DNA of 64,000 nt, taken from NCBI GenBank assembly GCA_963514005.1, contig OY740811.1, positions 27,466,001 through 27,530,000 of the forward strand, read 5' to 3'. The position numbers were made by a program, and so were the translations under genes. Positions 6,797-56,761 of this stretch are shown in pieces (within the stretch, counting starts at the first letter, position 1; each line of letters begins with the position of its first letter). The DNA is from Raja brachyura. Taxonomy: Eukaryota. The notes under the pieces were generated by a model, which was not told the DNA's origin, did not search any database, and saw nothing but the letters and a program-made list of their open reading frames with translations.

Positions 6797-7525
<729 letters not shown>

Positions 7526-11919: not shown

Positions 11920-12050
11920 TCTGAAGAAGGGTCTCGACCCGAAACGTCACCCATTCCTTCTCTCCAGAGATGCTGCCTGTCCCGCTGAGTTACTCCAGCT
12001 TTTGTGTCTAACTTCGGTTTAAATCAGCATCTGTAGTTCCATCTTACACA
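11920..12050 (+). mobile_element. PLE-derived short element with an intact minimal hammerhead core (11921-11948)
   Basis: ctgaagaagggtctcgacccgaaacgtc followed by the family body gatgctgcctgtcccgctgagttactccagc and tail cagcatctgtagttccatcttacaca. Confidence 0.8.
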
Positions 12051-13489
12051 ATGTACCCAGCAACCTGATATGACCAACCCTGCACTGCCATTGAAAGGTT
12101 TTAAATCAAACCGCAGATGCTGGAAATCTGAAATAAAAAGCTCAAAAAAACGCAACAAGTCTTGCAGCATCTGTGGAAAGAGAGACGGTCAACGTTTTGC
12201 GTCTGTGTCTCTTGGTCAGAACATTGCACTGAAACGCTTTAATGCATCTTAACCCTCAGTGCGATGCCCTGATATAGTCGTCCAGCACTCTGCCTCAACT
12301 CGCCCGCATCCAACCCTCCCTCTCCGCAATGGGAAACAAAGGTTTTATCTAACGCATGCCAAGCTGCGTAAGTCAGGGGTATGTTGCAACATTGCAACAC
12401 GCACCATGTGCGCTCGCATAAATAACTTGTATAACTGGGGGCTGCGTTTCTGTGTATATCAGGGAAGTTGTGATGGGGGGGAGCTTTTCAGAACCGAAAA
12501 CACGAGGAACTGCGGATGCTGGCAGCTTCAGCAAAACACAAAGCGGTGGAGGCATCTGTGGGGAAAATAGACCCGTGTGATCCCGTCCGTCCCCATCCAC
12601 AGACGCTGCCCGAGGCGCTGTGCTCCTCAGATACTTGGTATATAACGTTACATAACTCGCTGCGGGGATGTTGGGGCTGCCGGCGTTTATTGCTCCCCCT
12701 TGCTGCCTTGGGACTGGGACCATATCCAGGCCAGACCAGACCAGGGAAGAACATTAGCTGGATGTGTTCAAATCGTGCCATGCCAATGAGAGATTCTGAA
12801 TAGGAGAAATGGAATCTCATCCCATGTCGGAAGTGCAGCGGCAGTGACTTCATGGCCCGGGAAAGTTCAGCAGACATGGCCCAAAATCTAATGGATGGTT
12901 GCAACAACAACAAAAATAATTAATCGGGTTCACCACTATATTTTGGGAATGTAATATCGATTAAGGTCCATTTGTGAGTTCAGAAACTGGTTGATTTAAC
13001 TCTCTCCGAGGCAACCCAGCATAACATGCAGGTCCATGGATAGCAGGGACGCGCCTATGCCTGGTGTGAAGGGAAGCTGCACACTGCCGGTGCGGAGCCA
13101 GCCAGCCGGGGCGGGGATGTAACTGCGGCCGCGGTGCCCTCCTGTGTGAAGTGCAGGCAGCCCTCAGTGCCCGAGCAGGGGACAGGCGGCCGAGGAGCTG
13201 CGGAGGGAAATCGCAGTCAAAGCACCCTCTCTATCCCAGCTTCAAGATGCCCTAAGCCTCCCAACATCTACCCACAATACCTTCTCTCACACACACAAGC
13301 CTAACACACGCACAGCCTGACACACACACACGCAGCCCCCCGCACACACCCATACAGCGACGTACCCCACAGATACATACAAACAAGTGCACATACGTAT
13401 ACACAGCCCGACACACGCCCCACTCACAGATATACTCCACAGATATACACACACACAACAGGCACACACACAGTCCCCGATAATGAATA

Positions 13490-13826
13490 TGCAGGGATGA
13501 AGGGATATGGATCACGTGCAGGCAGATAAAATTAGTTTAATCTGGTATGTGTGGCACGAATATGATGGGCAGAAGGGCCTGTTCCTGCGCTGGACTATTT
13601 TACGTTCTAACCTGGCACTGTTCTGCTCCGGAGTAGGGTACGACCCGAAGCGTCACCTGTATTCAAGAGAGTTAGAAATAACTATTAGGGCTAACGGAAT
13701 AAAAGGATATGGGGAGAGAGCAGGAACGGGGTACTGATTTTGGATGATCACCCATGATCAAAGTGAATGGTGCTGGCTCGAAGGGACGAATGGCCTACTC
13801 CTGCACCTATTTTCTATGTTTCTATA
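13490..13826 (+). mobile_element. CR1-clade LINE 3' ends (two adjacent)
   Basis: gggcagaagggcctgttcctgcgctg and ggctcgaagggacgaatggcctactcctgcacctattttctatgtttctat tails. Confidence 0.7.
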
Positions 13827-15600
13827 TTCCTTTTTTTCCCCGGAGATGCTGCCTGACCTGCTGAGTTCTTCCAACGTTCAAAAGTCAAGAGTGTGCATTG
13901 TGTTATGTCCCAAACACAACTGCATTCTTACTTGTAGCAGCACAACAGAATATGTAAACATAGTATTCTGTAAACAATATAATAAACGATAAAGTTCCGT
14001 AAAAACAAACAATATTGCAAAAAGACTAAACCAATGCCCCCAAGTGTGTGTGTCTATCTCCGGTAAAGACCAGCATGTGGAGTTTCTTACTACAATGTTC
14101 TGCTCTGGCCCGGCTGCCAGCCTAAAGGATCCCGGCACAAAACGTCATCTATCCATTTTCTCGTGAGTTTTCGCGTTACTCCAGCACTTTGTGTCTTTTT
14201 ATTTTGTAAACCGGCATATGCAATTCCTTGTGTCCACACAATGAACCGTAGATGGTGGAATCTGGATGTAGGAAGGAACTGCAGATGGTGGTTTAACCCG
14301 AAGACAAGAGTGCTGGAGGAACTCCGCGGGTCGGGCAGCGTCTGCGGAGGGAATGGACGGACAGGCGACGTTTGGGGGTCGCGATCCTCCCTCAACCCCG
14401 TGTCTCTGCGACGTCCTTCCGCTGATGCCAGGGTGGCCGGAGGAAGTCACATGAAACGATGTAGGAGAAGCAGGGACTGGAATCTGGAGGATTAGGTGCA
14501 AATATACAAGCAAAGGACTTTCAGGGGGCGTAAATTCAATTTGGTAGCGGCGAGAGCCGGTAAACAATGTTTGCAGGTGTGATGCGGGCTGCGAGAGTGG
14601 AAAGATTGCAGCTTTGTGATGCAGTCTACCGTGAGCTAATGTGTAAATTAGTGAGTAGAAGTCAAGCAGTCAGGGCACATTCTCCAATAATAAATCCAAA
14701 CAAGCCCTAGAGTCATTAGAGGAGCGTATTCGCACAAGGAGGTTTGGATTACGGAGCGACGGATCTCGCTAGATTGGGGTGGGAGGGGGGAGGTGCGGGG
14801 GTTGGCAAATGGGACCAAGGTACGGCGCGAATCGGCAGTCTGCTGTGGTTTAATTAAATAAGGTGTTAAGGGATTAGGTGGAACTTGTCATTAAAATCCA
14901 TTCAGGACTAGGCGACGGTGTTTTACTTTCGAGAGGGAGATGCGGCTGGTTGGATTCATGAGGCTGCATTAATGAAATCAGATTGTACCACAGCCCCTTG
15001 TAGCAGCGTCGCGGCTGGGTTTTGTTTTCTGGGAATGACTGGGATCAGCGCTGCCCTTCACTTGGCCTGGCGCATCACGAGAACCCAATCATCCTCGCCC
15101 CCCCCCCCCCCCCCCCCCCCGAGAGAGAGTGGCTCACGGTTCTCACAGTCTGAGACCGGGAGAGTGGTGCCGTGTCTGTAGTGCCGTGGCCGAGGCTCGG
15201 TAGCAGAGGCGACCCCCGCCTTCTCCTGACCGACCAACAGGACTTGATACTGGGTCCGCGTTGTTGGGAGCAGAGGGCAGTGACTCCAGCGACATTGGGC
15301 TCGGCACGGTCTGGGAAATTCGGCTCAAATTATGGGGAGAAGGCAGAAGAATGGGGTTAGGAGGGAGAGATAGATCAGCCATGATGTGATGGGCCGAATG
15401 GCCTAATTCTGCTCCTATCACTTTGAATGTATGAAAACGGGAGGCAACACCTCAACCCTCGTGTTTCCTCTGCATGACCGTCAATCCCATCGATCCCAGT
15501 CCATAATGTTGGGTGAACGATGTAAGAAATGTGTGGGTTACACAAAAAGCTGGAGAAACTCAGCGGGTGCAGCAGCATCTAAGGAGCGAAGGAGATAGGC

Positions 15601-15628
15601 GACGTTTCGGGTCGAGACCCTTCTTCAG
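15601..15628 (-). ncRNA. Minimal type-I hammerhead ribozyme core (pax7 sense strand)
   Basis: CUGAAGA-A-GGGUC(UC)GACCC-GAA-ACGU-C: conserved CUGANGA and GAAA boxes, stem II, palindromic ACGU in place of helix III, and UC cleavage site. Helix I is only about 2 bp. Confidence 0.65.
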
Positions 15629-15636
15629 ACTGTTTT

Positions 15637-15664
15637 CTGAAGAAGGGTCTCGACCCGAAACGTC
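15637..15664 (+). ncRNA. Minimal hammerhead ribozyme core (antisense to pax7)
   Basis: Identical 28-nt core on the plus strand. Confidence 0.6.
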
Positions 15665-15949
15665 GCCTATCTCCTTCGCTCCTTAGATGCTGCTGCACCC
15701 GCTGAGTTTCTCCAGCTTTTTGTGTAACCCTCGATTCTCCAGCATCTGCAGTTCCTTCTTTAACACATAAGAAATGTGTGTGTGGGGTGGGTGGGGGATG
15801 GCGAAAATGAAGGGGAAAATACGATGAATTAAAGACTATAACAAATATCTAAACGGTCATGAGATTGTGGAAGGGTTGGGTCTTAGAGTCATAACGCTAT
15901 GCAGCACGGAATGAGGCCCTTCGGCGCATTTTGTCCATGCCAACCAAGT

Positions 15950-16740
15950 TGGCATACAGGGCTGCAGTGAAGAAGTGTGCAAAAGAGAAAAGAACAGTGT
16001 GCAGAATACAGTGTTACAGCTAGAGAAATTTCTGTTAATATTTATACCTCGGAACCTGAAGCTCATGACCATCTCCACTTTAGCACCACTGGTACAGACT
16101 GGGGCGTGTACCCCACCCCCCCTCCCAGCGTTGGTGATCAGCTTCTTTGTTTTGCTGATGTTGAGGGGGAGGTTGTTGTCTGGACCCTGCTCTTAAGCTC
16201 TCAATCCCCTTCCCGTACCCTGTCTCATCATTGTTTGAGACCTGGTCCACTACAGAGGTGTCATCTGCAAACTTGTAGCTCAAGTTAGAGCAGAAGTTGG
16301 CCACACAGTGGTGTGTAATTAGGGAGTTTGGCAAGGGATTGAGAAAGCAGCCTTGCAGAGGTCCGGTGTTGAGAATAATCGTGGAGGATGTTTTGTCCCC
16401 AATTCCTACTGAGTTCAGACCCAAAGGTACCGACAGTCGACAAATCTCCCTCCTGATTACGGTCTATGGGTCAGAAAGTCGATCCAATTGCAGCGGGGGG
16501 GGGGGGGGGGTTCTGAGTCCTAAGTCCAGTTTGGAGATGAGTTTGGGTAGAATTATGGTGTTGACGGTGGAGCTTTGGTCAATAAATAGTAGTCTAATGA
16601 AGGTGACTTTGTTATCCAGATGTTCCAGAGACAGGGTCAGGGTCAGAGAGCTGGCATCTGCAATGGACCTGTTGCAGCAGACGGCAAATTGAGGCTGTAT
16701 GGGAGGCTGAAGTTAATGTGTGCCATGACCAGACTGGTCG
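15950..16740 (-). mobile_element. Rex1/Babar RT fragment, degraded
   Basis: ORF 16080-16424: ILNTGPLQGCFLNPL...YKFADDTSVV. Confidence 0.8.
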
Positions 16741-17254
16741 GGATACTTCCACCTAGTGCAGGGAGTAGAGAAACATCAGGCAAATCCCCGCTCTGTGTCA
16801 CCCTGCAGAACCCTCCAATGCATGGAGATAAGGTGGTGATGGTACAAAGCCCCTCGTGCTTGACTATCTGTACTGAATGGAAGGGTTTATGTATGGAAAA
16901 TAACCCTGTGCCCTAGGAACTGGAGGGTGACAAATGCCCTGGTGAGGATGTGGACAAAAGTGGTGAATAAAACTTATAAAATTAAAGCAAAGGAGAAAGG
17001 AGATTAAGGAGGAGCAGAGGGAACTGACCTTGTTACCCAAATGCCACAGTCTGTGCAGCAACAGATGCAATGAGCATCAAACCCAGCCACTCTTTGCTTT
17101 CACATCCACAAGCTGGGGTCTGACCTTGCAGTCGGCCGAGATCTGGTGGGGCCTCAGCCAGCATCTCTCTACATCTGTGAAGTCTATTATAGGCTCTCAT
17201 TGCACATTCATTGGCAGTCACAGGGACCTGCTGAGGAATCTGTGTGAGTGGCTG

Positions 17255-17790
17255 GGCAGAGAGAGAGATAAAGCGAGCAAGATAACAAGAGAGAGATAAC
17301 GAAAGAGATCAACTGGAGAAGAAAGAAAGGTGGAAGAGAGTTACTGTGGTAGACACTGGATAAGTGAGGATAACAGGCATAGAAATCTAGAGAGATCGAT
17401 AAGGAGAGGGAGAAAAAGACAGATAAAGCAAGAGAGATCGACAGGAGCAGAGAGAAAAGAGCAAGAGAGTGACAGAGCCAAACACTAGCAAAGAGAGGGT
17501 AGCAGACATATATATCTAGAGAGATCGATGAAGAGGAGAGCGAAAGGGATATTAAGTAGAGAGAGAGAGAAAGGGAAAACACAGATTATGGCCAGAGAGA
17601 TGCACAGCCAAACACAATGAGAGGCAAACAAAACAAACAGGAGATAGAGAGAGAAAGGAAGTATGGGGGAAATAAAGAGGAAGAAATAGAGAGAGGGAGA
17701 ATGAGAAAGGAAAAATAAACATACACAAAGAACTAAAAACAGTGAGGAAGGAATAAATGAAGAGAGCGAGTCCGTGTCTGAGAGGAATGC
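17255..17790. repeat. GA-rich low-complexity tract
   Basis: Purine-rich degenerate (GA)n; source of spurious Ser/Leu ORFs. Confidence 0.85.
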
Positions 17791-17799
17791 AAGGACTGA

Positions 17800-22607: not shown

Positions 22608-22703
22608 TATGTAGATAAAAATATTGGAGAAACTCAGCTGGTGAGGCAGCATCTATGGAGCGAAGGAATAGGTGATGTATCGGGTCGAGACCCTTCTTCA
22701 GCT
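22608..22703 (-). mobile_element. 96-bp solo PLE-derived hammerhead element with a 14-bp TSD
   Basis: ttacatatttagtg at 22594-22607 and 22704-22717; the core is mutated (GAUAC instead of GAAAC). Confidence 0.88.
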
Positions 22704-26735: not shown

Positions 26736-26899
26736 CCACTCCTAGAGGAGGAGTTGAATTAATAATGGGAAATAAGGAAAGTTAGTGATATGGAACTAAT
26801 ATTTTTTATCTGTCCTCTTGCCAGATGACATTTGAAGTATCCCAATTAAAATAGTAAAATCTGGGGGCGGGGGGTGGGGCATAATAACTATTAGTGGAG

Positions 26900-29790: not shown

Positions 29791-31259
29791 ATAACCACAA
29801 TAATGTGAAGCCAGAGGAAGGGATGCAGATGGGGAGGGGTTGGGGGGAGGGAGAGGGGAAAAGGCGGCTGGATAGTGGGAGAAATGGATGTGCTTCCAGG
29901 TGGGACATATGGAAGAGGAGGACTGGGGGTAGAAGGGAAAAGGGGAGGAATTCTTGGTTAGTAGTTACCTAAAATTGGAGATTCAGTGCACATACCGCTG
30001 GGTTGTAAACTATTCAAGGTGCTGTTCCTCCAGTCTCCGTGTGGCCTCACACCGGCAATGGAGGATGCCCAAGACAGAAAGGTCAGTATGGGAATGGGAA
30101 GGAGAGTTAAAATGGTTAGCAAGCATTCACGCTGATGTATTGGAATAGATAATGGTGAAGCCTGTCTATGGTACAGGGGCAGCCTGGAGTTGAGGAACAT
30201 AGGTAATTGCTTTGTATGGAGTTGATATCCCTTCAAACAGTGTGGTCCCAGATGTGTGAAGGATCCTGCAAGATATCAGTTAACCACCGAAGCAGACACC
30301 CATGCGATCTGATACACATTATAGGCTGGACCCAAACACACCGTGGATAAGGAAAAGAGAATGACTCCCTCATCAATCACAGGGATTTTGGGATTTCACA
30401 TTCAATAAGGAGAAATAAATCAAGTTCTCCATAAAACAACATCCTGACCAAAAACATTTATCGGTTGTGGGGGGTTAATGGATGGAATAATTCCAGGTAA
30501 TGTATCGCAAAAAGCCAGAAACTACGCATGGACCTGACTATTCACGACGCCACCGTTTACTGTAGATAGCTTTTCTTGTTCCTGTTTCTAATTTTTCACC
30601 CAAACTGCCAGGCTGTGGTCGCAGAGTACCAAAGGCTTGTGAGGGTGGTGAGGTGGGGGTGGGAGACATGTGCTCTCCCTCCCTTTCATTGCCTTGTTGC
30701 ACCATCTTCTCACCAATCATCCCCACTCTCAGCCCACGCCCCATCCTCCCACTCCACACAATCAGGTGTCAGGGCATCATAAACAAGGCTTTGAAGTGCT
30801 GCCTGTCTCCAGGCAACAGGAGGTGACACCCAAAGCACTGGCTCCTTGTCGGCAAACAGCAAGGCACAGACACTGCAAAGCCTTTCAAAGCATCTCACGT
30901 AAAATGGAAGCGTTTTGGAGCCTTATGATCCCTTGTAAAACCAGGGCAAGCCTGTTACCAACTCTCAGAATTAACAGGTTGCAAGAGACATTTCAAAAGT
31001 CACCTGAACTGCTTGTCAAGAGTTTAAAGAATTAAAGATAGATGCTCAGTGTCTCTGTCTGTGTGGCAGCATTTATACATCAGTTCTCTCTCTGTCCATC
31101 CCTGGGATTCTTGCTTTCTGCCTCCTCTCGCTACTCCCACAGACTTTCCTCTCTGTCTTGTCTTTTCCTTTGATCTTTTTCACTCTATTGCTCAACACAA
31201 GTCATTCTCGGACTTGTTGTATCCAAACTTGAGGAAAGAGAAAGGAAAATAAAATGATT

Positions 31260-34700: not shown

Positions 34701-35449
34701 GTGACTCCAGTCCTAACGCCAAAAATCTCCCCCGTTCTGACAGACTCTCTGAGGAAATATCAGTGTTCTCTCTCTTTTTCACTCTCTGTCATATGTAACG
34801 GTCTCATTCCTTCTATCTATTTCATTGTTTGTCCTTCCTATCTCTCTCTCTCTCCATTGTCTTTGAGTGCTCATCTCTCTATATCTCTGTCTACTCCCTT
34901 TGCTTCTTTTGACAAGTCTTTCTCTGTCTACTCTTTGCTTCCTATTTTTCATTAGACTGTACCCCCCCCCCCCCCGAGACTCTGTTAGTTCAGATTGTCA
35001 CAAATCTCACTAGTTTCATGCTCCAGATTGTCAGGATTCACAGATTTTTCACGTCATCTCTCAGGTACATCAGAATCACTTGTTGCTGAGGAGCTGTAAT
35101 CTCTTTCACACCACTCTGAACCTGCTTGCTTGCATTTAGTTCCCAGAATCTTTGTGGCTGATGATTATCACAGTAGCACAAAGAAACACATGGTTGCTGA
35201 TCAGTGAGCAGTTTACATTCCTGAGAGACATGGTTTTGCCAAAGGGAAACTCGTGGTCCAGAGTATTTGAAAATTTCCTCAATCAATTAATGAAGCAGCC
35301 ACTGGAACAATAACTTTCCCTGTAGTCAGGCTTGTCCCTCACCGCGTGTTCACTCTGACACAGTGCAATGCGAATATTCCTACTCTCCTGGCTGTCTCAT
35401 GAATTATCACTTTAAGAATCTGCTGCATTGGAAAGCTTTACTTGCCATC

Positions 35450-35910
35450 AGTACCTGGGATGTACCCCAGCTTCTGAAGCCAGGTATAACCAGGGTACGC
35501 CCAGGTTCATTGTACAGTGAATATCAGGTTCATTGTACAGGGTATACCCCAAGTTCAGGGTACAGGCTATACCAAGGGTACAGCGTATACCCAGCTTCAG
35601 GGTACAGGGTGTACTCATGGTACAGGGTATACGCAGGTTCAGGTCACAGGTTATAACCCATGTTCAGGGTACAGGATATACCCAGGTTCAGTGTACAGGG
35701 TATACCCAGGTTCAGTATACAGGGTATACCCAGATTCCGTGTACAGGGTATACCCAGGTTCAGTATACAGGGTACACCAGGTACCGTGTACAGGGTATAC
35801 CCACGTACAGGGTATGTCCCAGGTTCTGTGCAGGTATATCCAGGTACAGTGTACAGGCCATGTTCAGGGTACAGAGTATACCCAGACTCAGTGCCCGGAG
35901 TATATACTGG
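35450..35910. repeat. 24-bp minisatellite containing the palindrome GGGTATACCC
   Basis: Consensus gggtatacccaggttcagtgtaca; palindrome at 35698, 35722 and 35746 (period 24); about 18-19 degenerate units. Confidence 0.85.
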
Positions 35911-38439
35911 ATTCTTGCTCCTGATGACTCTTGCTGGACGAAGAACCCTTACTAAACTTGACTGGGACAGATCAGACTTCCCGCTGACCAGTTGACCAAT
36001 TGGTTCATACTCGTGCCATTGGGGACACAAGGCTTTCACCAGGGTGAGGTCCTCAGCTGAGCAATTGGTGGTGCTTTGGACACATATTTGATCTGCAAGT
36101 GTGGACAAAAGAGTGGAGGAAACTCATTCGAGAACAGTTACACCTCAACCTGTCCTCAGTAATTTCCCAGCACTGGTGCCCAGCCAGGATCAGTAATAGG
36201 AAAGATGCAAAATGCTGGTGGAATAGGATCATTCCCAGACAAACATGGTTCATTTCTTATCAATAATCTCTGGCTGCCTGGCCACAGTCAGAGGTTGTCC
36301 CATTGTCACTTCCAGTTGGTTGGGGGGGGGGAAAACAGTTGCATTTCACCGAAGCTATAAAAACCATTTACACGCGGACAACCCCAGTCCAGCTCTGGTT
36401 CGGAGTCGAGCTCTTTGAAAATGGATCACAAAAATATTGACGGGACCAAAGGACTGGGCCATTCCTTGCTCTCTCAACACCAGACATGGTACAAGATCTC
36501 CAGGCACCTGGTAAACAGCCATCAATTGGTAGTGAGTGCTGGCAGGGATTACAACCACATCAAGGTATAAAGAACTCCTTGAGTTCTTTATACCTTCACT
36601 GGTCAGGATTTTCTGATTGGCCATGGCGGAACCCTGGCAGTCGTCAATGTAACAGCCAGTGAAGCTATAACACATCTGGCTGGAACATTTTCAGAAGTAG
36701 AGTTTACAGACTGGACAAATAATCCCAAAATAGTTAGGTCAGGTCCTACCGCTTCAGGCTACAAAAGCACGGAAACAAAAACACAGTTCTTATCCAGTTG
36801 CTCTACATGTGACTCCAGTCCAACACCAACATGATGTGACTGGCCTCTGAAATTGTCAGGTAAATGCCTAAGGATCAGCTTCTGGGGCATTTCAGGACAG
36901 GCAGTAAATCTGGGCTCAGCAAAGGCAACATATCAAGAGTGAAATACATGAATAATTGAAACAAGAATCACATTCTGAAGAAGGGTTCCATCCCGAAATG
37001 CCATCTATACATGATTCCCAGAGAAGCTGCCTGATCCTGTTGAGTTACTCCAGCACTTTGTTTTTATTTTTTAAACCAGCATCTGTATTTTCCTGTCTCC
37101 ACATCGAATTTACGTCCTCATCAGGGAGCTGTCCCTGACGGACCCTCTCACTCTGCCTGAGATGTACACTGTTCCTTTCCTTCCTCTTGCAAAATGGCTC
37201 CCGGTACGCCCTCGGTATTAAAATCCTCCTCCTGATGTCCATGGCTCTCATCCCCTCCCAATCCTTAGAACTTCCTCCAGCCTCTCTTTCCCTGAGATCT
37301 CTGCATTCCTCCCTGTTGATCCCTTAAGCATTTATAATCTCCATCATTGGCAGCTGTGTCTTCCACTGCCTGGGCTCCACACGCAAATTCCCACCCCACT
37401 CTCTCTATTACGCCCTTAAAATCTAGTTCCTTGACCAAACGTTACCTGCCCGATGTGTATCATTTAGTTGAGGACCGGTAAATTACTTGTTAACATTGCT
37501 GTGATTGCTAATTTAAAGGTGTTATTTAATTACCAACCGTTAGGGTGTCAGTCAGGGCTGCAATGTGCAATGACCAGTGTATTGTGGGCTGACTTGTGTG
37601 TACAACCCTTGAGCAGACCCTAGCCTGGTGTGACTGACCTCCATGCACATGGTTGGATTAAGCCTCTGAACCTGAACTGTCCATGTACTGGAAGGGGGGT
37701 ATCCTTGGAGACCGAGATGGAATGAGGCGTCTGCAGACACAAAGTATAATTTCTCTTCACAGCAAGGCTCAAGCACAAGTAACTGGTCATCTCGCGGCAA
37801 GAGATCTCAGCCTCTGACTGTGTTGTGACAGAGTGAACACCATTAACAATTCTCACACAGACAACAGGGCAACACCTTGCAATTACTATCTTGCAGTTTT
37901 AGTGCAGGGGCTGAACATCATGTGGCAGGTTTGGTGCTTTGCCTAAAATCAGCAGTCACTGCTCCATGGCTGGATACTGTGTCCAGTATGCCATTCAGTT
38001 GCAGTCAGTCATGTTACTGTGATTGCAGTGAGAGGGGAAACCAGTGCTGGAGAATAAACAGGAACAAGCTAGCAAGTTTCCATTCAAAGAGAAAGCTGGG
38101 CTGATTGTAAACTGATTTGCATTATATGACCATGAGAACATCCCCACAGGGAAGAGGCCATCCAGTCTATACCTGTGCTTATACTTCTGCTCCAAGCCTT
38201 CCTTTCAATTCTCCGCTTCATGCCCTCCAGTGGGACTCTCAATCTCACCACATACCATGCTCTCAGATCCCTTGCATAGAACAGTACAGCGCACAACAGG
38301 CCCTTCAGCCCACAATATCCATGCCGAACATGATGCCAAGTTAAACTAATCTCCTCCATGTGTATGCTCTCCATTCTTTGCATATCCATGTGCCAATCTA
38401 AAAGCCTCTTAAACGCCACCCTTGCGCCTTATCACTATC

Positions 38440-42559: not shown

Positions 42560-43548
42560 TTGCCTTATCTTTCACTTTTCATCTCTAGGCCTTTGTCCTA
42601 CCATCTGCCATCGAATCTCCCCCCCCACCTGTATCCACCTGTCACTGTGTAGGTAGGAAGCGCAGATGCTGGTTTGCTTCAAAGACATACACAAAATGCT
42701 CGAGCTACTCAGCGAGTCAAGCAACATCTCTGGATAGAAGGAAGAGATGATGTTTCAGATCGGGATTTGTTCTTTTCATCCCTTTCATTCATTTATTTGT
42801 ATTTTTTTTACCACTAATTTCCCTCTCCCCAGTCTGAAGAAGGGCCTCGAACTGAAAAGTCACCTATTGCTTTTCTCCAGAGATGCTGCCTGACCCGCTG
42901 AGTTACTGCAGCATCTTTTCCACCAATCTCTTCCATTCCCCCCCCCCCCCCCATACCAAGCCGAAAAGTCACCTATCCATGTCCTCCACAGATGCTGCCT
43001 GACCCGCTGAGTTACTCCAGCACTGTCTTTCTCTTTTGAAAACCAGCATCTGCAGTTCCTTGTATCTATATCTCTCTGATTTATCCGCTCCTGTTTTATA
43101 GCCTACCTGAGACTGATTTATAATCAACTCTCCAAACTTGGCATAGCTAAGCACTGTGCTCTGTGAGGATAGATAAGAGACAGAACGAAAGATAAGCACT
43201 TTTCTGAAGCTGATGTGGCCTTTGAACTGCTCGCTGCTCGCCTCAAGGACTTATTGGCAGTTTACCTGAAGCTGATGCAACTCGACCAACCCCCCTGAAG
43301 GACACTATGACTGAGAAGTGACCTGTGGACGTATATTCTCCGTGTCTGTGCTAACCCGTCCCCACTGTCAGGGTGACATGTTCATCTGGAGACACAAAGT
43401 GTTGGAGTGTCTAACCCGCTGATTCACTCCAGCACTTTGTATCTTTTTTAATCTGAAGATGGTCCCGTCCTGAAACGCCGCCTGTCCATCCCTTCCCCAG
43501 ATGCTGCCTGACCCGCTGAGTTACTCCAGCACTTTGTGTCTTTTTTCA
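42560..43548. mobile_element. Cluster of PLE terminal-repeat-derived elements in tandem and inverted arrangement
   Basis: Family body gatgctgcctgacccgctgagttact recurs near 42881, 42991 and 43500; degenerate cores near 42834, 42960 and 43453; reverse copy at about 42646-42765. Confidence 0.75.
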
Positions 43549-45690
43549 CATGTTCATCTGCAGCCGGGCCTCCTCGTCACCTGCACACTTAACTTTAAGG
43601 CCGGTGCTTTTGGAAATACTTTGTGTTGTTGTTAATTTCATGTAAAAGCCGCCTCCGTCAACTTTCCCTTTAAATACAACCATGATCGACCGAACAAAGA
43701 CCAGCCACTTGTTCCTTTTACGGATCCATTATGCAAAACCCGGCCGTGCACAGGAGCATTGGTCACCGCCACGCTTCCCCTCGGCGACCCTTTCCCAGTC
43801 TCGCCCTCCCCCGCAGTCACTGTTTAATTAAAGGCTGATTATACACTGGGTTGCTGCCGACACCCGGAGCCTGTTATCCAGGTGCGACTCCCCAAAGGCA
43901 GAGAAATTACAGAGCAAGTGCAAATAAGTGGAGTTTACATCCAATCGGCTTCAAACTCCGAGGAGCCGCCGCCAAATCCCCGCGCAGCGATGCCAATCCA
44001 GCCAAAGAGGACCAAGTTAACTGGGAAAACAAACAGCGCTTCACAGAACTCTCAGCAGTCTTCCCTCAAACGGGCAACAGATTTCCACCGCAGGGAGAAT
44101 TTGTGAATCTGACTTTGCCGACATTGGACATTGTCTCTGGAACTGATGCGCTTCAATGCCGAGAACTATACACTGTTTTAGACACAAAATGTTGAAACTC
44201 ACTCCAGCTTTTTGTGTCTATCTTCGGTTCAAACCAGCATCTGCAGTCTCTTTCTACACACTTAAAAACAAATCAGAGTTATATGTACTTCTTATCCCAT
44301 TCTTTAGCATGAATGCGATAATCAGTTCTGTTTACTATAAGTTTAAGAAGGAACTGCAGATGCTGGAAAATCGAAGGTAGTTTCAATATTAAGTGGGAAC
44401 GATCCAATCTGTATCAAAGGACTGTCCCAGTTCTACACAATTTAGGGATTTTAAAGTGGGAATATCAGAATTATTTAATGTCAAAAGAACCAGACGGACA
44501 CCTTTAGCCCATTCCGGACATTGGACTTTATCTCAATGCTGAGAACTATATTGTCGGCTCTTTATCTACCCCTTTGCTCGATCTACTGTACACGAGTTTG
44601 GCATGATTGTATTTAAGTGTGCTATCATCTCACCCGATTGGGCAGCATGCAAAACGAAGTTTTTCCCTGTACCTCGGTACATGTGCCAATAATAAACCTC
44701 ACCAGGGCCGGAACATAGAGCCTAAAACAGCAAGTTGGTGACAGTGGAGCTACTGACACACACGCCGACACTCCCGCACCAGCCCGCTCGTGTCACAGTG
44801 CCTGCAGGCAGGACAAAACAACATAGGGGCTCCTCGTCAGGCAAGGGCCTTGCAGGCGGGGTACGGGAGAGACGGGGTTTCTGGGGAAGAGGGGTTGGGG
44901 ATGGGGCAATTCTTCCATCAATAACTAGCCAAACATTCTAGAAAGGAACATGGTGTTAAAGTGAAGCTGTAGTGTCGGAGATGGTCGTTTCCGACAGTGC
45001 TGCAACATTCGCCAAGGCGGCACCCGGGCTGCTTGGTCTAATCCTCTCCCAGTTCAATTTAGTGTAAATGCCGTGAACCCGGGAGGGAGTGTTCATCAGT
45101 TCAAAGAAAGCCGCGGGTAGACTGGCTGATTAAAGGGCAAAGGGTCCACTTGGAAATTGTACACATTCTCAGCACAGCCCCTGGTTCAACAGGTTGGATT
45201 ATATTCCACACTAGTCCGCCCACCCCATCCCCATATCTCCCAACGAGTCCTTTCTCCTCAATATCTGAATCAGAACCAGCTCCCCTATAAATTGTGACAC
45301 TGTTAACTGTTGACGGTGGAAGCATCAGTAAACCACAAAGTGCTGGAGTAACTCAGCGGGTCAGACAGCATCTGGGGAGGGAATGCACAGATGACGTTTA
45401 GACTGTCTGAAGAAGAATCCGGAGCCGAACGGACGTTGTCTGTCCATTCCTCCCTTCCACACTGCACACATTAAACAACTTTGGATCAATTGGTGTTGAT
45501 CGCCGCTCCCATCCCCATGTGGGACCACTCCACCTCTACTCCAGCGAGTCTCCTCATTATAATGGTGTTGTTCACTTCTAGTTTTCTCTGCTGGGTAATG
45601 TAAATATATTGACCGAGTTAAACGAGAATCATCACCCATTTCCAAGTTCGGGCAGTTGTAATGTTGCATTGTTATCAAACCGAAAACTCA

Positions 45691-45837
45691 ATCGGGAATC
45701 ACTCCAACCCGCCCCACTCCATCAGGAATCACTCCAACCCGCCCCACTCCATCGGGAATCACTCCAACCCGCCCCACTCCATCGGGAATCACTCCAACCC
45801 GCCCCACTCCATCGGGAATCACTCCAACCCGTCCCAC
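45691..45837. repeat. 30-bp near-perfect minisatellite, about 4.9 units
   Basis: atcgggaatcactccaacccgccccactcc at 45691, 45721, 45751, 45781 and 45811. Confidence 0.95.
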
Positions 45838-47836
45838 CGGAGAAAGCGAATCTGCAAATTGTCCTTGGCCGTAGTTTCTTTTTATTAAACGAGCATCTAA
45901 CAAAGGTTTCGAATCGGTGATAACTATAATAGTGGATGGTTCCATTTTTGTGCGGTAGACATGGGTCTAGAAACATACAGAGAGAGAGAGAGAGAGAGAA
46001 CGACACGGAAAGTGAGGAATGGAGCGGGCACAGTTGTGCTGAAGAAGCCGAGTTACTCCAGCACTCTGTGTCTTGTTTGTAAACCAGCATCTGCAATTCC
46101 TTGTGTCTACAATCTATGCTCGAGTGACTCAATGGATCGGGCAGCATCTCTGTTAAATGATAGGTTTGACCAAGTTCTTTGTATTTTCTGCTTCTTTTTT
46201 TTCAGATTCCGAGAACTTTCGGATGAATCGGTGGGGCTTCTGCCCCGCTCACTAATCTCCTGCATCCAGGGCTCAAAGATCTTTCGCATTTGGCCTGGGT
46301 CTAACTAACGGGAGCGGCTTCACTTCACCAGATATCCATATCGGTAACCAGTTATGTATAAGCATTAGACCTAGTCTGCGGGATTTGCCGAGTGAATGAT
46401 GCATGTGTCTCAGCTTTTACTCCGGCCAGCCCTCGCCGCTTTCTCCTTTGTGCAATCACCAGCTTTTGTTAGATAATCAGTCGCCTGATGGGATGAGGAA
46501 TAGATAAAGATTCTTGGCATCTGGCGGCTAAAATGAAAGGGGGATTAGGTACCGGCCGCTGCACACTCCATGGCACATGGGCTTGCTATTCCCCTCATTC
46601 AGGATACCATTGATTATATCCAACCCTCCGTGTTTCGTTACATCTCTCCGAGATGTTTGTATTCGCCGGACAATTCGCCGGACAAAACAAAAAGCTAATA
46701 GCTCTGGTGCATGTGAACTACTGAGACCCTTAAAGGGGCAGTCCCATCGCTCCCCGCAGTGGCTATCATTTAGTTGAACAGTGAAATAGGAACGGTGCTT
46801 GTTTAGTTTAGAGATACAGCAGGGAAACTGACCATTTGGCCCACCGTGTCCACGCCATTTCGGCCCACCATCGATCACTCGTTCACACTAGTTCTAAGTT
46901 ACCCCACTTTCTCACCCACTGTCGCTTTCCTCCCACATTAGGGGCACCGGCCCCTGAAATATCTGCATCTAGTATAGGCCATTTGCAGCACACAATTGAA
47001 ATAGTTCCTGCAGTGTGTGATGTGGGGATAAGGTGTAGCCTGGAATGGTGCCCATAGGACAACAACTGTCCATTTTACCCCGGGCTCTGCAAAAGCTGTT
47101 AACGTTAATAATCAGGAAAAAGTTATAGGCACGTGGAGACTTTTGAGTTAATAAAGGAGATTGGTTAAAGGCAAATAATGTTTGACTGAGGAAGGTTCTG
47201 AAGAGGTAATGGACAAGGTTGGTTCAGGACATGTGGTTATTATAATTTTGTTTGAGAGAATCCACACAAAGGCTGGTTTGGGAAATGACACCTGTGACCT
47301 CAGGATCAGTGGCTGCATGAATATGAAATTGGCAAAGCGACAAAAGTTAAGAATCATGGTGATCTTCAGAAATGAAGATGATAGATGTGCTATTCCCCAG
47401 GGATCTATGCCAGGACAAATGCTTTTGTTTCAACCTAAAGTAATGACTGGGAGGAGGTAACATTTCAGAATTTGCATGACAGTAATACACTGCAAAAGAC
47501 CACGGCTAAACTGGCACAACAAAGAGAGGTGATATACTTTAACAGGAAGAACAAACACAGAACAGTGGATAATGCTACTACCCCACAGCCCCAGTGACAC
47601 AGATTAATTGTTGACATTGGGCACTACTGTAAATTCCCTCCCCAATATGCAAGTAAATGGTAAAATAAATTCTAAAAAGTTGGAAATTAATTGGCAGCAA
47701 TAACATGCAATGCCATGAGAAAATAAGACAATGGGGAATTGGACGAGAGGTTTTTCTGTTAGGAAACAACATGAATTTAATGATCCAAATGGTCTTTTGT
47801 AATAAATAAGTGTGTGACATTGACTTAAGCAATATT

Positions 47837-48035
47837 ACCCCTCTCCACCCCCTCCTCTCCCTGCTCCCTCACTCCTCACCTCTCCCCTATCGCACTTACC
47901 CACTAAACACAATGTTTAAATAAGCGGGGGAGGGGAGGAGGAGAAATTTTATTTAAACATTGTGTTTAGTGGGTAAGTGCGATAGGGGAGAGGTGAGGAG
48001 TGAGGGAGCAGGGAGAGGAGGGGGTGGAGAGGGGT
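47837..48035. repeat. Perfect 87-bp inverted repeat with a 25-nt spacer
   Basis: 47837-47923 is the exact reverse complement of 47949-48035. Confidence 0.92.
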
Positions 48036-48299
48036 TATGGATGGAGGGAGGGAGTGACTGAGGGTAGGGAGTGACTGAGGATAGGGTAAAGGTGAAGGAG
48101 GGAATGGAGGAGGAGAGGGGAAAGAAGAGGGATGGTGAAGAGGAGGGGGAGGGAGTGTATGAGCCACGCCTGCGCGGTTGGGCCCTATGGGTGAGTGATG
48201 GATATTGTGTTGGGGGAACAGGTTGCGTTGGGGGAACGTGTGAGTGGTGGAATATTGCATTGGGTGAACGGGGCCCAACAAGTACCACTTGGTTTAGTT

Positions 48300-48770
48300 A
48301 TTTATAAAACTCTCATTGGACCACAGTTAAAGTGTTGCAATCAATTTTGGTTATCGCATTTTAGGAAAACTCCAGCGATTATGTTAATAAAGATTTGTTA
48401 AGAATATTTCCAATGAAGAGGGATTTCCACCACAAAGTTAGAATCTGGGATTGGCTACGCAAAAATCCTTGAGCAGAAAACGTTCAGAGGAGTACCAAAT
48501 TGTAGCCGATTTAGAAATGGTAACCAGAGAGAAGTTGCCCCAATTAGCAGATGGCATAAGGACTTGGGACCAGTTATGAGTAAACAATACTGGGTGAGGA
48601 GCGTTGTGTGGCAGAACTGGTTTGCACAGAATGTAGATGAGGTAGAAGGTAGAACTCACAGCCTTGAAAGCCAGTGGAAATAATCCATGATCAAAGGGAT
48701 ATTATTAGGCAGAAGAAATGAAAAAATGTAAGAGATAGAGCAGAGGGGTGGAACTAACTGGGTTCCTCCA
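48300..48770 (+). mobile_element. Old CR1 3' fragment
   Basis: YKTLIGPQLKCCNQFWLSHFRK resembles the CR1 motif LYKTLVRPQLEYCVQFWSP. Confidence 0.65.
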
Positions 48771-51609: not shown

Positions 51610-52605
51610 TCCAACGCATAGAACACATTCGCCAACATTTCTGCCAAATTCAACGTGATCCCACCAAATGTCCCTGCCCCACCCCTTTCTGTGTTTCTGT
51701 AGAGACCACTCTCTTTATAACTCCTTAATTCGCTCATCCCTTCCCACCTAACATACACCCTTCTCCATGTAGTTTCCTCAACACGTGTCCCTACACCTCC
51801 TCTCCCACCTCCATCCAGAGACCCCCACCATCACTTCCAGATGAGACGTAGGTCCACGTGCACCTCCCCCAACCTTGTCTATTGCATTCAGTGCTCCCAA
51901 TGTGTCCTTTACATTGGCGAGACCAACCGTAGACTGGGCGACCGATTCGCTGAAAGCTTGCACGTTGTCTGTCAAGGCCTACTCGCTCCACCGGTTGCTA
52001 ACCGTGTTCTCAATCCCACGCCGGCCTCCTCCTCTGCCAGCGAGAGGCCACACACAAACTGGAGGAACCGCACCCTCATATTCCGTTTACGTAGCTTACA
52101 ACCCAATGGTATGAACATTGAATTCTCCAATTCAAGTAATACCCATTGACACCTCCTCTCTTTCCCCTCTTCCTCACTTCCCCCCACCCCCATACCAATG
52201 CGCAAACATCTCTCCCACCACCCCAGTAACTCATCGCCAAGTCCCATATTTCATTTCATCTCTTTCCCCTCCCCTGTACCGTTTCACTCCTATCCCTCCC
52301 TCTGGCTTTACATTTCACCCTTCCCTCATCTCTCCATATCTGACACCTTTTTATCTTCTTTTGCTCTGTAGCCTTTGTCACTTATTCCACCCATCAGCCA
52401 ATTAAACCCCACCCCCCTCACTTGAGTCCAACTATCACTTGTCAAACTCTGTCCTACTCCCTCTCTCTTTTGTAGCTTTCTCCGCCCTTTTCCATCAGTC
52501 TGAAGAGACGTAAAGACCCGAAACGGCGCCTGTCCGTCCATTCCGTTCACCGATGCTGCTTGACCCGCTGAGTTCCTCCAGCACTTTGTGTTTTGCTTAC
52601 ACAAC
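51610..52605 (+). mobile_element. Penelope-like retroelement (Neptune-type) 3' part: linker, GIY-YIG endonuclease pseudogene and terminal repeat with a decayed hammerhead
   Basis: ORF 51841-52149: TCTSPNLVYCIQCSQCVLYIGETNRRLGDRFAE...LIFRLRSLQPNGMNIEFSN (VY..YIG.T.R...RF). Upstream NTCPYTSS linker. Downstream cagtctgaagagacgtaaagacccgaaacggc at 52496-52527 plus the family body. Confidence 0.9.
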
Positions 52606-53794
52606 AATGTTGCGTTTACCGCAGTAGCGGGCATTGTCCCTCAACTATATGGAGATGTTTGTCCCCTCTCCTTTATAGAAATGCCATTCTACGAGATGCG
52701 CAGGTCGCTACTCTGTGGTGCTGAAGTAGTCCTTGCTTCAAGACCGTGCGCAGTGTAGAACTAGTAGAGTGAGTTGAGCCGAGGTGGTGACTGGAGTACC
52801 TGCAACTGGGATATCCCCTGCATTATTTATCACCTGAAAATTCCCCATAGCTTTGAGAAGCGGCATGTTCCCTGCAGTGTGCAGGCTGTGTGGAAGCGGT
52901 CTGTGATACCCTTCAGACCAGCGGAGATGGTCAATGTTTAAAACGCGTTCCTCCAATCGGAGTCAAGCGATCATCTCACTTCCTCAATCCGTGCCAATTT
53001 TTGGTGTGCCGGCCCCGGCCCACAGAGGCGGGGAACCGCCAGTGGAGACGGTGCAGACAGGCAGGCGGTTCGTCCGTTAGAAATGGGACTGGTGAGGCGA
53101 CGGGTGGCACTGAGTCAGGAGGCAGGAGCCAAGGAGACACAGGGAACTGCAGATGTTGGAATCTTGAGCAAAACACAAAGAGTTGGAGGAACTCAGCGGG
53201 ATATAGGCGGCATTGCGGGTCGGGACCCTTCTTCGGACTGATGGCGTTGGGGGGGGGGGGGGGGAGCTGGAACAAAGCCTGGCAAGTGATAGGTAGATAC
53301 ACGTGAGGGGGGAGCGGAACCCTCTCCCTGCTTATTAAAGCCATTCGGACACCCAGCCCGTTTACGCCGGCCCCCGGAGGAGTGGATGCCAACAGAGGGG
53401 GGCCCGCAGGAGGCGAGCAGAGGCGGTGTCTCCCCAAATTTCAGAGCCTTGTTCCCGCAGCTGACTAGCATCCCGACGCAAACAGCGCCGCTGAAGAGCC
53501 CGGGGAGCCGGCGCTGACTTCAGCTCAGTCGCACTTTACAGGAAGGCGTGTTTCCTGCAGCTACTTGCGACGGCTGGAAACCGGTTAGGAGGCGGATGTA
53601 TTTGGCGGAGAGTAAATCAGGTTCTTGGACATGTCTCCGTAAACAGAGACAGTGGCGTCTGTTACCGGAGCCGCTGTCCCACCCGGTCTCACACTCCACG
53701 CTCCTTGCTTCCTTGGACACGTTTCATCGGCTTCAGACGAACACTTTGTGACAACTTTACCGACTGCCACAAATCCGATGTATTTTGTACTTTT

Positions 53795-53970
53795 TAAAAA
53801 ACTGGAGGAATTCAGCAGGTCAGGCAGCATCTCTGGAGAACATGGAGAGGTGGCGTTCGGGTCGGGTCCGAAAAAGGGTCCCGATTCGAAATATCACCCA
53901 TCTATCTATGTTCTCTAGAGATGTTGCCTGACCCGCTGAGTTGCTCCAGCACTTTGTGTCTTTTTTTTCC
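53795..53970. mobile_element. Older inverted pair of PLE-derived elements
   Basis: ctggaggaattcagcaggtcaggcagcatctctggagaacat...atgttctctagagatgttgcctgacccgctgagttgctccag, imperfect palindrome. Confidence 0.75.
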
Positions 53971-55224
53971 TCCCTACAAGATCGTTGCTGGGGTTGACAG
54001 GGTGGGTGCAGGGATGATGCTCTTGGCCGGAATCTCCAGAACAGGAAATCAAAACCGAGGTGCGAATGTTTCTTAATGAATCTTTGGAATTCTCCACCCA
54101 AGGCCCCGTGGATCTCAGTTGCCGAGTATAGTCGAGGCAGAGAATGCTCATTGTTTTGTAATACGAAGGGACTCTGGGATGTGGGGTTAGTGCAAGAAAG
54201 TGGTGCCGAGCTAATGGTTCAAGCGCGATCATATTGAATGGCTGAACAGGCACAGGCGGCTTCCAGTTCTGAACCATCCAGGAATGCAGTGAGATTCCTG
54301 AATCACTCCAGCACACAGCTATTATGTGCGAATGGCAAACAAAACACAGATCCCACCAACCTACCCATCACGTTCTCCTGAAGAAGGGTTTCGGCCCGAA
54401 TCGTCGCCTATTTCCTTCGCTCCATAGATGCTGCTGCACCCGTTGAGTTTCTCCAACATTTTTGTCTCCCTTCGATTTTCCAGCATCTGGATCCTGACTC
54501 AGTCACCTCAGCACCCACAGAATCACAGTGGGAAGTGTTACCATTACCCCCACATATTCCCCACACAAGACCAATATATAGTTCACTTTCTTATGTGAGT
54601 TGTTTGACCTACATTTTTTTCCTCACCCCCCCCCCCCCCAGTATTTTGTATTTTTATATGAATTCCTTGTATATCCTTCCTATATCTTGTGTAAATATAC
54701 CATGGAATCTGTCCACATCGTTCTTCATTCTCTACATATTCACCAGCATCGGCCGTGCCTTGTTTCTCTCCGTGTTTTGCACTCTATGTCTGTTGCAGAG
54801 AACAAGTCCGAGCGCTCCGCTGCCGCTGGCGAACCACCAATTGATTGAAACTTCTCGCCTGCAGCCGCTGACAGACCGCGGCGAGTCACATGCTCTTTAT
54901 TAATTAACCAGCAAGTTGATAAACAAAGGCCGCTCCGGACGCGGGACATTCATGCAGATATCAGCAGCGTCAGTTTCGGAAAACTTCCCTTTATTTTCGT
55001 TCGTGAAATCTCTCCCATTGTAGATTTGAGGCTGTTCCCCGATCTCAGTTCACGTACTCAGCTTCTTATAAGAGTCTCGACTTGATTGTATTTATGTATA
55101 GTATTGACATTAGATTGGATCGCAGGCAAAACAAAGCTTTTCATTGTACTTCGGTACACGTGACAATAATAGACCCAAACCCAAATCAGATTCACTCCGA
55201 TAAAGTTGGATTCCTGCACACTGG

Positions 55225-55405
55225 ATGGATTTAAGAGAGTTGGATAAAGCTCTAGGGGCTAGTGGAGTCAAGGGATATGGGGAGAAGGCAGGCAGGCACG
55301 GGTTATTGATCGTGGACGACCAGCCATGATCACAATGAATGGCGGTGCTGGCTCGAAGGGCCGAGTGGCCTCCTCCTGCACCTATTTTCTATGTTTCTAT
55401 GTTTC
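55225..55405 (+). mobile_element. CR1 LINE 3' end
   Basis: ggctcgaagggccgagtggcctcctcctgcacctattttctatgtttctatgtttc. Confidence 0.8.
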
Positions 55406-55747
55406 ACACTGCTGGACTAAATTCGTCTGATACTTCTTTGGAGTTTGAAATATAGGAAGGGTGATCTTATCTAAATAACTTAGGGGTCATGGCTGGATGA
55501 ATGTTGAGTTCATTCTGCAAATGGGAAGGTCTTGAGCAAGGAGAGAAACATCGTTATGAGATGTACCTCATTACACGTGACAATGAACTAAGCTAAACTA
55601 AACTAAACTAAGATGGTGATCTCTGAAAACGGAGGCGTACAGGAACCTCTTGCATTTGAATCTCTGGGATTTGGAGCCCCAGAGGTTTGTGGAGATTATT
55701 GGAGAAGGTTGATAGATAATCGTTTTGAAGCACCAAAGAACTGACCA

Positions 55748-55977
55748 TAGACACTAAATGCTGGAGTAACTCAGCGGGTGAGGCAGCATCTCTGGATAGA
55801 AGGAATGGGCGACGTTTTCGGGTCGAGACCCTTCTTCACAGACGTTCTTCAGAGAAGGTCCCGACCCAAAACATCACCCATTCCTTCCCTCCAGAGATGC
55901 TGCCTCACCCGCAGAGTTACTCCAGCATTTTGTGTCTACCTTCGATATAAACCAGCATCTGTAGTTCTTTCTTACAC
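55748..55977 (+). mobile_element. Inverted PLE terminal-repeat pair plus tail (diverged)
   Basis: Arms at about 55748-55838 and 55851-55938, tail to 55977; same architecture as 15535-15767. Confidence 0.82.
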
Positions 55978-56665
55978 TAAGACTGAGGGCGATGTGAAAC
56001 TGGCATAGAACTGACATAGAAAATAAGATGAGGCCAAGGGCAGATCAGCACGATTATATTCAATGGAGGGGATTAAGGGGGAGGTCTGAGAGGCCTATTC
56101 CTGCTCCTATTTTTTTGTATTCTTGTGCGGGATGTTATGGTTGTGGCAGCACATAACCTTGAGTGACTGAGTGTGGTCACAAAGATTTTATTTGCCTGAA
56201 TTGTTGCAATAAGAAACACAAACCTGATCTTATACAGGTTTCCAAGATCAACTCTATCCTGAATTCTCCAAATTCACTGTTAAGCTAAGTGGCCATCTCC
56301 CAGATCAACATACCCAGTCATCAGACCACAGTTACATATTGCTTGCACGCCCAGAACTAGACTCACAACGCAGGCAGTCTGTTCCATGCCCTCTCACAGA
56401 TAGAGATGTCCAGGTGGACAGAGGAGAAGATTCAAGGAACGTGCTCAAAGCCTCCTGGAAAAGAAGAATCCCAAGACACTACCACCAAAGGAGGAGTGTT
56501 GAAGGAGTTATGAGTGCAGCACTGTTGAGGGTGTCTTGAGTCTCTAGTGGGGTGGTCTTTGTCAATTGAGTTAATGGGGAGGGCAGCAATACTGAAGGGT
56601 TGGCAAGTGCAGCAGCATTGAAGTAGGAGCAGGTTTAGCCATGCAAAAGCAACATAATACATTGG

Positions 56666-56761
56666 GGGTTACACAAAAAGCTGGAGAAACTCAGCGGGTG
56701 CAGCAGCATCTAAGGAGCGAAGGAGATAGGCGACGTTTCGGGTCGAGACCCTTCTTCAGAC
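56666..56761 (-). mobile_element. 96-bp solo PLE-derived hammerhead element with a 10-bp TSD; intact core at 56732-56759
   Basis: Identical to 15535-15630; tacattgggg at 56658-56667 and 56765-56774. Confidence 0.9.

Follow-up and report, generated by a model that had tools for sequence, protein, structure and literature searches.

In metazoan Penelope-like elements (PLEs), minimal hammerhead motifs are present in both pseudo-long terminal repeats (pLTRs); they lack helix III, carry an extra base between positions 9 and 10.1, and have a G10.1–C11.1 pair and palindromic positions 15.2–16.2 (Cervera and De la Pena 2014, PMC4209133). Most motifs of this kind are dispersed as single copies, which that work already ascribes to truncated PLEs, and some stand in close pairs on opposite strands. 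Neptune PLEs with an endonuclease (EN), furthermore, have a reverse transcriptase (RT) followed by a C-terminal GIY-YIG domain with a CX4CX2C linker, and show partial tandems, inverted 5′ copies, a tail of 30–40 bp at one end and solo pLTRs (Craig et al. 2021, PMC8557442; Arkhipova et al. 2013, PMC3846280). All of these features recur in a repeat of Raja brachyura and its coding relatives, which we describe here starting from a stretch of 64,000 nucleotides on contig OY740811.1 (positions 27,466,001 to 27,530,000; hereafter the window). As a repeat family it is ordinary, namely an abundant PLE with an already described ribozyme motif. Since the kind of element is known, its interest rests on what the insertion junctions say for a capped start at the edge of the ribozyme, and on a one-tail rule in inverted pairs; these bear on two questions about PLEs, that is, how the RNA start is placed with respect to the hammerhead, and whether RNA that has been cleaved ever serves as a template.

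The module is the pLTR of coding Penelope-like elements

The genome was searched with a GIY-YIG remnant of the window and the best loci were read; among these, the module lies ~170–250 nt past the stop codon of PLE frames. A search with the 5′ part of the frame then retrieved copies in which the module lies upstream of the frame too, and the loci L264–L268 and L270 have it on both sides. Three of the eight elements fetched whole keep an open frame of 1,203–1,204 codons between two module copies, and the frame of L265 is an open RT/GIY-YIG frame of 1,204 codons. The Pfam matches of the frames to RT and GIY-YIG are weak, both being under the Pfam curated cut-offs, and the GIY-YIG domain is preceded by CNRKRCYTC, a CX4CX2C linker. 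A CX2-5CxxC linker between RT and EN is a feature of Neptune-type elements, and Nematis also has one (PMC8557442); judged from its sequence, the partner element is likely of Neptune type. Inverted 5′ copies and partial tandems are found at L021 and L265. In the window, the head-to-head pair at 15535–15765 is identical to the 3′ pLTR of L265 and the copy at 11921 is 98.9% identical to an endonuclease-linked copy; the module is therefore the pLTR of these coding elements. Endonuclease-linked members occur in each of the three main families, A, B and C.

Most copies are nonetheless short. In an unselected sample, 140 of 166 copies passed anchoring, and 18 of these were window copies; among the remaining 122, 13 were endonuclease-linked, 14 had some untranslated region (UTR), 34 were arms of inverted pairs and 61 were solo. 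No upstream element sequence was present in 95 of the 122, as against 27 coding-linked copies.

The earlier note on this DNA, made from its letters alone, had proposed a distinct, non-autonomous and retrozyme-like family of Penelope origin, mobilised by a Neptune-type PLE. The Penelope derivation, the PLE-type minimal hammerhead and a likely Neptune-type partner have all held up. The separate family has not: the module is letter for letter the pLTR of coding elements, and short and long young copies have their alleles in common. In family A, no position differs at p < 0.05 when 106 short copies are compared with 65 long ones (older families lie outside this comparison). Nor do the copies behave as retrozyme units, because their ends avoid the cleavage site, at which only 2 of 202 5′ ends fall. 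Tandem neighbours are rare as well; a second copy lies directly upstream of 5 of 314 anchored copies in the ~1.7 Mb of genome that was read. In the sequence covered, dispersed monomers and inverted pairs, the rarity of tandems and ends off the cleavage site thus speak against a non-LTR retrozyme.

Positions in the module are counted below with C3 of the hammerhead as 0. The upstream pLTR of L265 contains a 41-codon upstream frame, the ATG of which lies at +50 inside the module, and this frame overlaps the first ATG of the long frame (+163); a splice-donor-like site is also seen near that first ATG. The conserved blocks of the body could reflect such a 41-codon peptide or RNA stems, and the description of the body as non-coding is uncertain to that extent.

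Ends of the copies and the hammerhead core

The 28-mer from which the repeat was recognised is intact at 11921–11948 (+), 15601–15628 (−), 15637–15664 (+) and 56732–56759 (−), exactly as the earlier note reported. Allowing up to three mismatches gives seven matches in the window against none in 100 shuffles; a profile built on six window copies gives 41 (1, 0, 0, 0 and 0 in five shuffles), and a longer profile finds 45 related pieces. All 18 positions that had been listed as variants coincide with a profile match, two of them weakly (13627–13662, E 0.029, with the first profile only; 45405–45456, E 0.047, with the longer one), and the motif indeed sits at the 5′ end of a body of 95 or 130 nt.

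The ends were mapped in 202 copies of family A. Most of these lie in the initial 4.8 Mb of a single contig, and some loci had been found with a pattern anchored on C3, so that ends 3′ of C3 are under-represented. The 5′ ends of 105 copies fall at −5 to +4, within ten bases of the front edge of the ribozyme, which amounts to 0.075 ends per base at risk, compared with 0.0006–0.0055 in seven other intervals. Inverted arms account for 31 of these edge copies, and the other 74 are not flagged as inverted. The cleavage site lies at +28 and is the 5′ end of the two copies mentioned above. The unselected sample shows the same 5′ edge, and exact counts over the whole genome are 29,497 for a 38-mer starting at C3 and 8,713 when ten upstream bases of one UTR variant (at least two exist) are included. 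Further 5′ ends form a minor cluster at +22/+23, among them inverted pairs of family A joined at the ACGT palindrome (L190, L194) and not at the cleavage site.

At the other side, 133 of the 202 copies end at +88 to +96 and 53 at +126 to +132. There are hence two fixed 3′ ends, ~+94 and ~+130, which are ~35 nt apart and bound an optional tail; 29 of the 106 short family A copies were scored as tailed. Of 20 head-to-head pairs, 19 are tailed on one arm and tail-less on the other, a configuration expected in ~42% of pairs given that 48 of 162 unpaired copies have a tail. This one-tail rule constrains how inverted pairs can be formed.

The short copies are separate insertions, as had been supposed. 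Strict target-site duplications of 9–18 bp flank 30 of 143 solo copies, compared with 0–2 in a control with swapped flanks. In the same 143 copies, which represent all families, the first base that no longer matches the element is G in 20 of the 28 with an edge at −2 (27% expected, p 1e-6) and in 18 of the 33 with an edge at −3 (26% expected, p 4e-4), as opposed to 3 of the 27 with an edge at 0 and to 9 of 54 copies truncated at more upstream points. Among the 30 copies with strict duplications, untemplated bases are present at 11 of 12 purine edges and end in G at 8 of these 11, whereas 13 of the 18 other edges overlap the duplication, an overlap that is partly built into the calling of edges. 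The edge of coding copies reads YCAGTCT. The initiator consensus being YYANWYY, this sequence fits it, and the 5′ edge may thus be an initiator-like start of RNA polymerase II (Pol II).

The motif itself fits a minimal type I hammerhead of PLEs and is a putative ribozyme on the basis of its sequence. CUGANGA, GAAA and UH follow each other in type I order, helix III is absent and positions 15.2–16.2 are palindromic. The extra A after A9 that the earlier note pointed out is present in 141 of 142 descriptor matches, and the palindromic ACGU is likewise there, ACGUC being the commonest form (41 of 126 copies) beside CpG decay and an ACGUU variant. Stem II had been read wrongly as GGGUC/GACCC, which is impossible because it would leave a loop of only 2 nt; the stem is GGGU/ACCC, with 4 bp and a CUCG or UUCG tetraloop. 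Helix I has 2 bp. All core bases are intact in 5 of 43 aligned window copies and in 37 of 126 spanning copies.

Pairing was analysed in 34 coding- or UTR-linked copies out of 38 non-redundant ones, four with shifted or deleted segments being excluded. The G10.1–C11.1 pair is kept as G–C in 31 of the 34. The covariation that was expected of stem II is not seen in this genome: 91% of cells pair, but the changes in stem II are one-sided only and the score is no better than that of shuffles (133/500), the families being too close. In a similar way, the core is more conserved than the rest of the body (0.945 versus 0.845, p 0.009) but equals other conserved blocks (0.939, p 0.33); its bases are thus kept as well as, and no better than, those of two or three further blocks in the body, and the profile was seeded with intact cores, which weakens this comparison.

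Predicted folds add little on the ribozyme. The whole module gives z −1.3 to −2.1 and pieces of 47–60 nt give z −0.1 and +1.1; the hammerhead-like monomer fold (−4.2 kcal/mol) is less stable than the best fold (−9.5 kcal/mol), and the ACGU helix is absent from the co-fold of two copies, both of which bear neither way on activity. An Rfam scan of the window found no hammerhead family at E <= 1, which is uninformative for a motif without helix III. Low activity, or a need for the PLE protein, has been reported for this class of hammerheads (PMC4209133, PMC11167929). Separately, a conserved block at +47 to +55 is predicted to pair with the tail in all four tailed copies that were folded (e.g., window 15683–15752), and +1 to +9 with the end of the tail in three of the four; the two 3′ ends flank the 3′ strand of the predicted body–tail stem.

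How the solo copies may have formed

The identity with the pLTR, the two 3′ ends, the sharp 5′ edge, the excess of G at purine edges, the duplications and the head-to-head pairs with one tail are observed in the genome. As their origin, we consider it fairly probable that the repeats are stand-alone pLTR insertions, in which RT started inside the module on uncleaved RNA and ran off a likely capped start at the edge. Transcription by Pol II would begin, with a cap, at about −3 in the initiator-like YCAGTCT, and the extra G would be the copied cap. On unprocessed RNA, RT would prime in the upstream pLTR, at +94 or +130, run off the 5′ end and insert the resulting stub, while initiation in the downstream pLTR would yield long, randomly truncated copies. 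Since RNA starting at −3 has at most three bases of the 5′ strand of helix I, the 5′ hammerhead of the mRNA would be weak or off; the 3′ copy would keep its upstream bases. A PLE RT has been found to initiate internally, at two sites between which the tail lies, and to use unprocessed RNA (PMC11167929), and an extra G with little microhomology marks the cap-copied ends of full-length L1, unlike truncated L1 insertions (PMC11702581). The junction statistics make an uncleaved RNA template with a capped end at the ribozyme edge likely. The uncleaved template agrees with the single in vitro study (PMC11167929), to which the present data supply exact positions.

Several observations nevertheless weigh against this proposal. 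No RNA 5′ end was observed, the start position being read from genomic junctions. At L021 (3330–3900), assembled contigs of 4 out of 21 runs were compared with the locus, and two of the four runs show loose ends at the 5′ edge, but the type of the runs was guessed and RNA ends are not visible in contigs. Eight long copies extend into the upstream pLTR, and not one of them begins at −5 to +4, three starting further upstream and five inside the module; long copies therefore use templates that pass the proposed start. RT could add a G at any RNA end, capped or not, and several junctions carry two or more G. The palindrome CAG-T-CTG can explain head-to-head ends at −4 with no RNA end at all, and the edge also resembles a splice acceptor (pyrimidines, CAG). 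Furthermore, the set of 202 copies comes mostly from one stretch of one contig, its C3-anchored picking biases the ends, and the duplication test was passed by only 30 of the 143 solo copies.

The first alternative, to which we give a rather small chance, keeps the origin at PLE 3′ ends and explains the 5′ edge by stalling of RT or breakage of the RNA where a structure or a protein footprint lies at the front of the hammerhead, or by joining at CAG-T-CTG, instead of a capped start. It accommodates the long copies that read through the edge and the 31 inverted arms among the edge copies, 13 of which end at −4 in the palindrome, and a stall is also suggested by the predicted fold of the tailed module, in which +1 to +9 pairs with the end of the tail. 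The edge is, however, common to the 74 copies that are not inverted and to tail-less ones as well (only 29 of 106 short copies have a tail), and the excess of G is confined to purine edges with none at upstream truncations.

A self-propagating non-autonomous element is less probable still. Here, stubs would be transcribed from an internal promoter of their own, and the PLE protein would copy these transcripts again in trans, so that the stubs form lineages. Short copies do outnumber coding-linked ones (95 versus 27 of 122), the stubs have duplications and fixed ends and would contain both RT start sites, and trans-mobilisation by pLTRs has been reported in a rotifer (PMC3846280). Against such lineages stand the lack of any solo-specific allele in family A and the endonuclease-linked members of families A, B and C, and neither tandem arrays nor cleavage-site ends of the retrozyme kind were found in the sequence covered. 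The allele comparison spans one young family of 171 copies and would hence miss young, identical stubs that were re-copied; re-copying of young stubs in trans is possible.

That the edge is a 3′ splice site, with stubs made from spliced or back-spliced RNA, is very improbable in spite of the pyrimidine run and CAG directly before the core of coding copies, the donor-like AAG/GTATGC near +162 and the intron of D. virilis Penelope that ends at the 5′ end of helix I (PMC4209133), for solo copies have upstream of them no constant exon and no donor-side sequence, their duplications abut the edge with 0–7 extra bases, and G at −3 beyond an edge at −2 is unlike the exon ends of the generally known donor consensus. 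A rolling-circle or back-spliced origin was rejected on the absence of donor-side sequence upstream of solo copies.

Returning to run-off from a capped edge, the data fit equally an origin of the stubs in cis from the mRNA of the element and one in trans from transcripts initiated in a pLTR. More tentatively, and with somewhat less than an even chance in our estimation, the stubs, which number in the hundreds of thousands, may be an in vivo fossil of the PLE cycle, in which the edge start silences the 5′ ribozyme, two priming sites are coupled (one for each nicked strand, which would account for the single tail of an inverted pair), the cap is copied and strong-stop insertions dominate; a stub that bears the promoter could then spread like a Pol II short interspersed element (SINE). 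If so, SINE-like spread of stubs with a working internal promoter would need no defined 3′ end.

The host intron and the relation to known systems

The earlier note placed the repeats in a pax7 intron; the host gene is indeed Pax7-like, with homologs named Pax-7, and lies on the minus strand. As far as could be seen from the sequence, ~7.5–64 kb of the window is a single intron of this gene, and the exons for the octapeptide and the paired box lie past the window end. The repeat is not special to this intron. In 58 evenly placed 10-kb genome samples (579,800 bases), 282 matches were found, 0–12 per sample, and none in two shuffles; pLTR pieces make up 4.4% of the sampled bases, at about one per 2.1 kb genome-wide. 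The density in the window, 7 per 10 kb, is inside the sampled range, so that a special enrichment in the pax7 intron is ruled out. Extrapolated to a genome of 2.7 Gb, the samples would correspond to ~1.3 million pieces; exact matches in the whole genome number 51,713 for a 38-mer of the family A body and 15,343 for a 40-mer of family C. There is no sign that sense copies are selected against in the pax7 intron: 21 copies lie on the plus and 21 on the minus strand, and three of the five core-intact window copies run in the sense of the Pax7-like gene.

Table 1. Copies of the pLTR module and associated features in the window.
Position	Strand	Feature	Support
7238..7375	−	Homeobox part of Pax7-like exon, downstream end of host intron	Pfam Homeodomain E 2e-15; homologs named Pax-7
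8162..14395		Older decayed pieces at 8162, 10189, 11217, 12107, 12502, 13627, 13835, 14124, 14268	
11921..12049	+	Solo pLTR, family C, intact hammerhead core, 35-nt tail	98.9% over 89 nt to endonuclease-linked pLTR in L219
15535..15632	−	Left arm of head-to-head pair, family A, intact core, tail-less	100% over 94 nt to 3′ pLTR of full-length L265
15636..15765	+	Right arm of head-to-head pair, family A, intact core, tailed	100% over 129 nt to 3′ pLTR of full-length L265
20792..37099		Older decayed pieces at 20792, 25263, 25798, 28525, 36974	
22612..22701	−	Solo, family B type, damaged core	14-bp target-site duplication; 2 untemplated bases at 5′ junction, last G
42648..43563	−, +, +, +, +	Cluster of five decayed pLTR pieces: 42648–42766, 42832–42921, 42960–43065, 43408–43446, 43451–43563	
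44201..46152		Decayed pieces at 44201, 44342, 45305, 45405, 46038, 46116	
51817..52131	+	Coding-end remnant of PLE GIY-YIG endonuclease	tblastn with L265 frame, 46% identity, E 7e-20
52498..52597	+	Decayed pLTR closing the 51817..52131 remnant (locus L011); the one endonuclease-linked copy of the window	
53137..53238	−	Decayed copy, internal deletion, tailed	
53796..53965	−, +	Decayed head-to-head pair: 53796–53868, 53866–53965	Profile matches
54378..54491	+	Solo, family B type (U–G closing pair, UUCG loop), GAAA damaged	92.9% over 112 nt to endonuclease-linked L095
55739..55976	−, +	Decayed head-to-head pair: 55739–55838, 55854–55976	Profile matches
56661..56761	−	Solo, family A, intact core, tail-less	10-bp target-site duplication; 3 untemplated bases at 5′ junction, last G
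57086..57212	−	Solo, family B type, tailed, damaged core	Profile matches
58496..58618	−	Decayed copy, tailed	
59704..59903		Old, decayed head-to-head pair	Profile matches
60468..60640		Old, decayed head-to-head pair	Profile matches

Other features of the window were noted in passing. A second short GIY-YIG remnant (30016–30123, minus, E 5e-8) has no adjoining pLTR match, and remnants of another non-LTR reverse transcriptase, unrelated to the PLE, lie on the minus strand at 9294–9794 (Pfam RVT_1 E 2e-13) and 16080–16463 (no RVT_1 match). A long, near-perfect inverted repeat at 47833–48039 with arms of ~95 bp gives spurious Rfam microRNA matches and is perhaps a miniature inverted-repeat transposable element or a fold-back insertion, and a degenerate tandem repeat of short period at 35300–36100 has repetitive open frames on both strands.

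With the known systems, finally, the likeness is close and the differences are definite. The hammerheads surveyed in PMC4209133 include those of fishes, coelacanth, Xenopus and reptiles; cartilaginous fishes are not named, nor 5′ ends mapped, in the available text of that survey, and the helices are shorter here, with 4 bp in helix II and 2 bp in helix I as compared with 7–8 and 4–5 bp in its Schistosoma example. Our literature search, which covered titles and the openings of abstracts (Repbase and Dfam being outside it), returned nothing on cartilaginous fishes that dealt with PLE hammerheads or with pLTR stubs. Unlike the Neptune PLEs with EN as described in PMC8557442 and PMC3846280, solo pLTRs are here the majority class and have duplications of their own and a fixed 5′ edge.

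The Poseidon element PAc of Anolis carolinensis (Frangieh et al. 2024, PMC11167929) shares the hammerhead at the junction of pLTR and open reading frame (ORF) and a pair of RT start sites with an optional tail between them. It is copied mainly from uncleaved RNA, and reads that end at the cleavage site are absent; the same use of uncleaved RNA is what we propose for the present copies. PAc differs in belonging to the Penelope/Poseidon clade and in an ORF that begins in stem II, while here the first ATG is at +163 and the cysteine linker is of Neptune type; a genomic pile-up of 5′ ends or an extra G is not described for PAc in the main text of that paper. Non-LTR retrozymes (PMC7229834; bioRxiv 10.64898/2026.07.22.740005) are likewise short and non-coding, with a type I hammerhead and kinship to PLE pLTRs, and one chondrichthyan is included in the sample of the latter survey. 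Retrozymes, however, are tandem units with a hammerhead each and form circles from cut site to cut site, in contrast to the dispersed monomers and inverted pairs found here, which span the cut site. Full-length L1 insertions, for their part, likewise have an extra G where run-off formed the 5′ junction, with little microhomology there and microhomology at other junctions (PMC11702581). L1 primes at the 3′ end of its RNA, so that run-off gives the whole element, whereas internal priming in the PLE of R. brachyura would give a stub of 95–130 nt.

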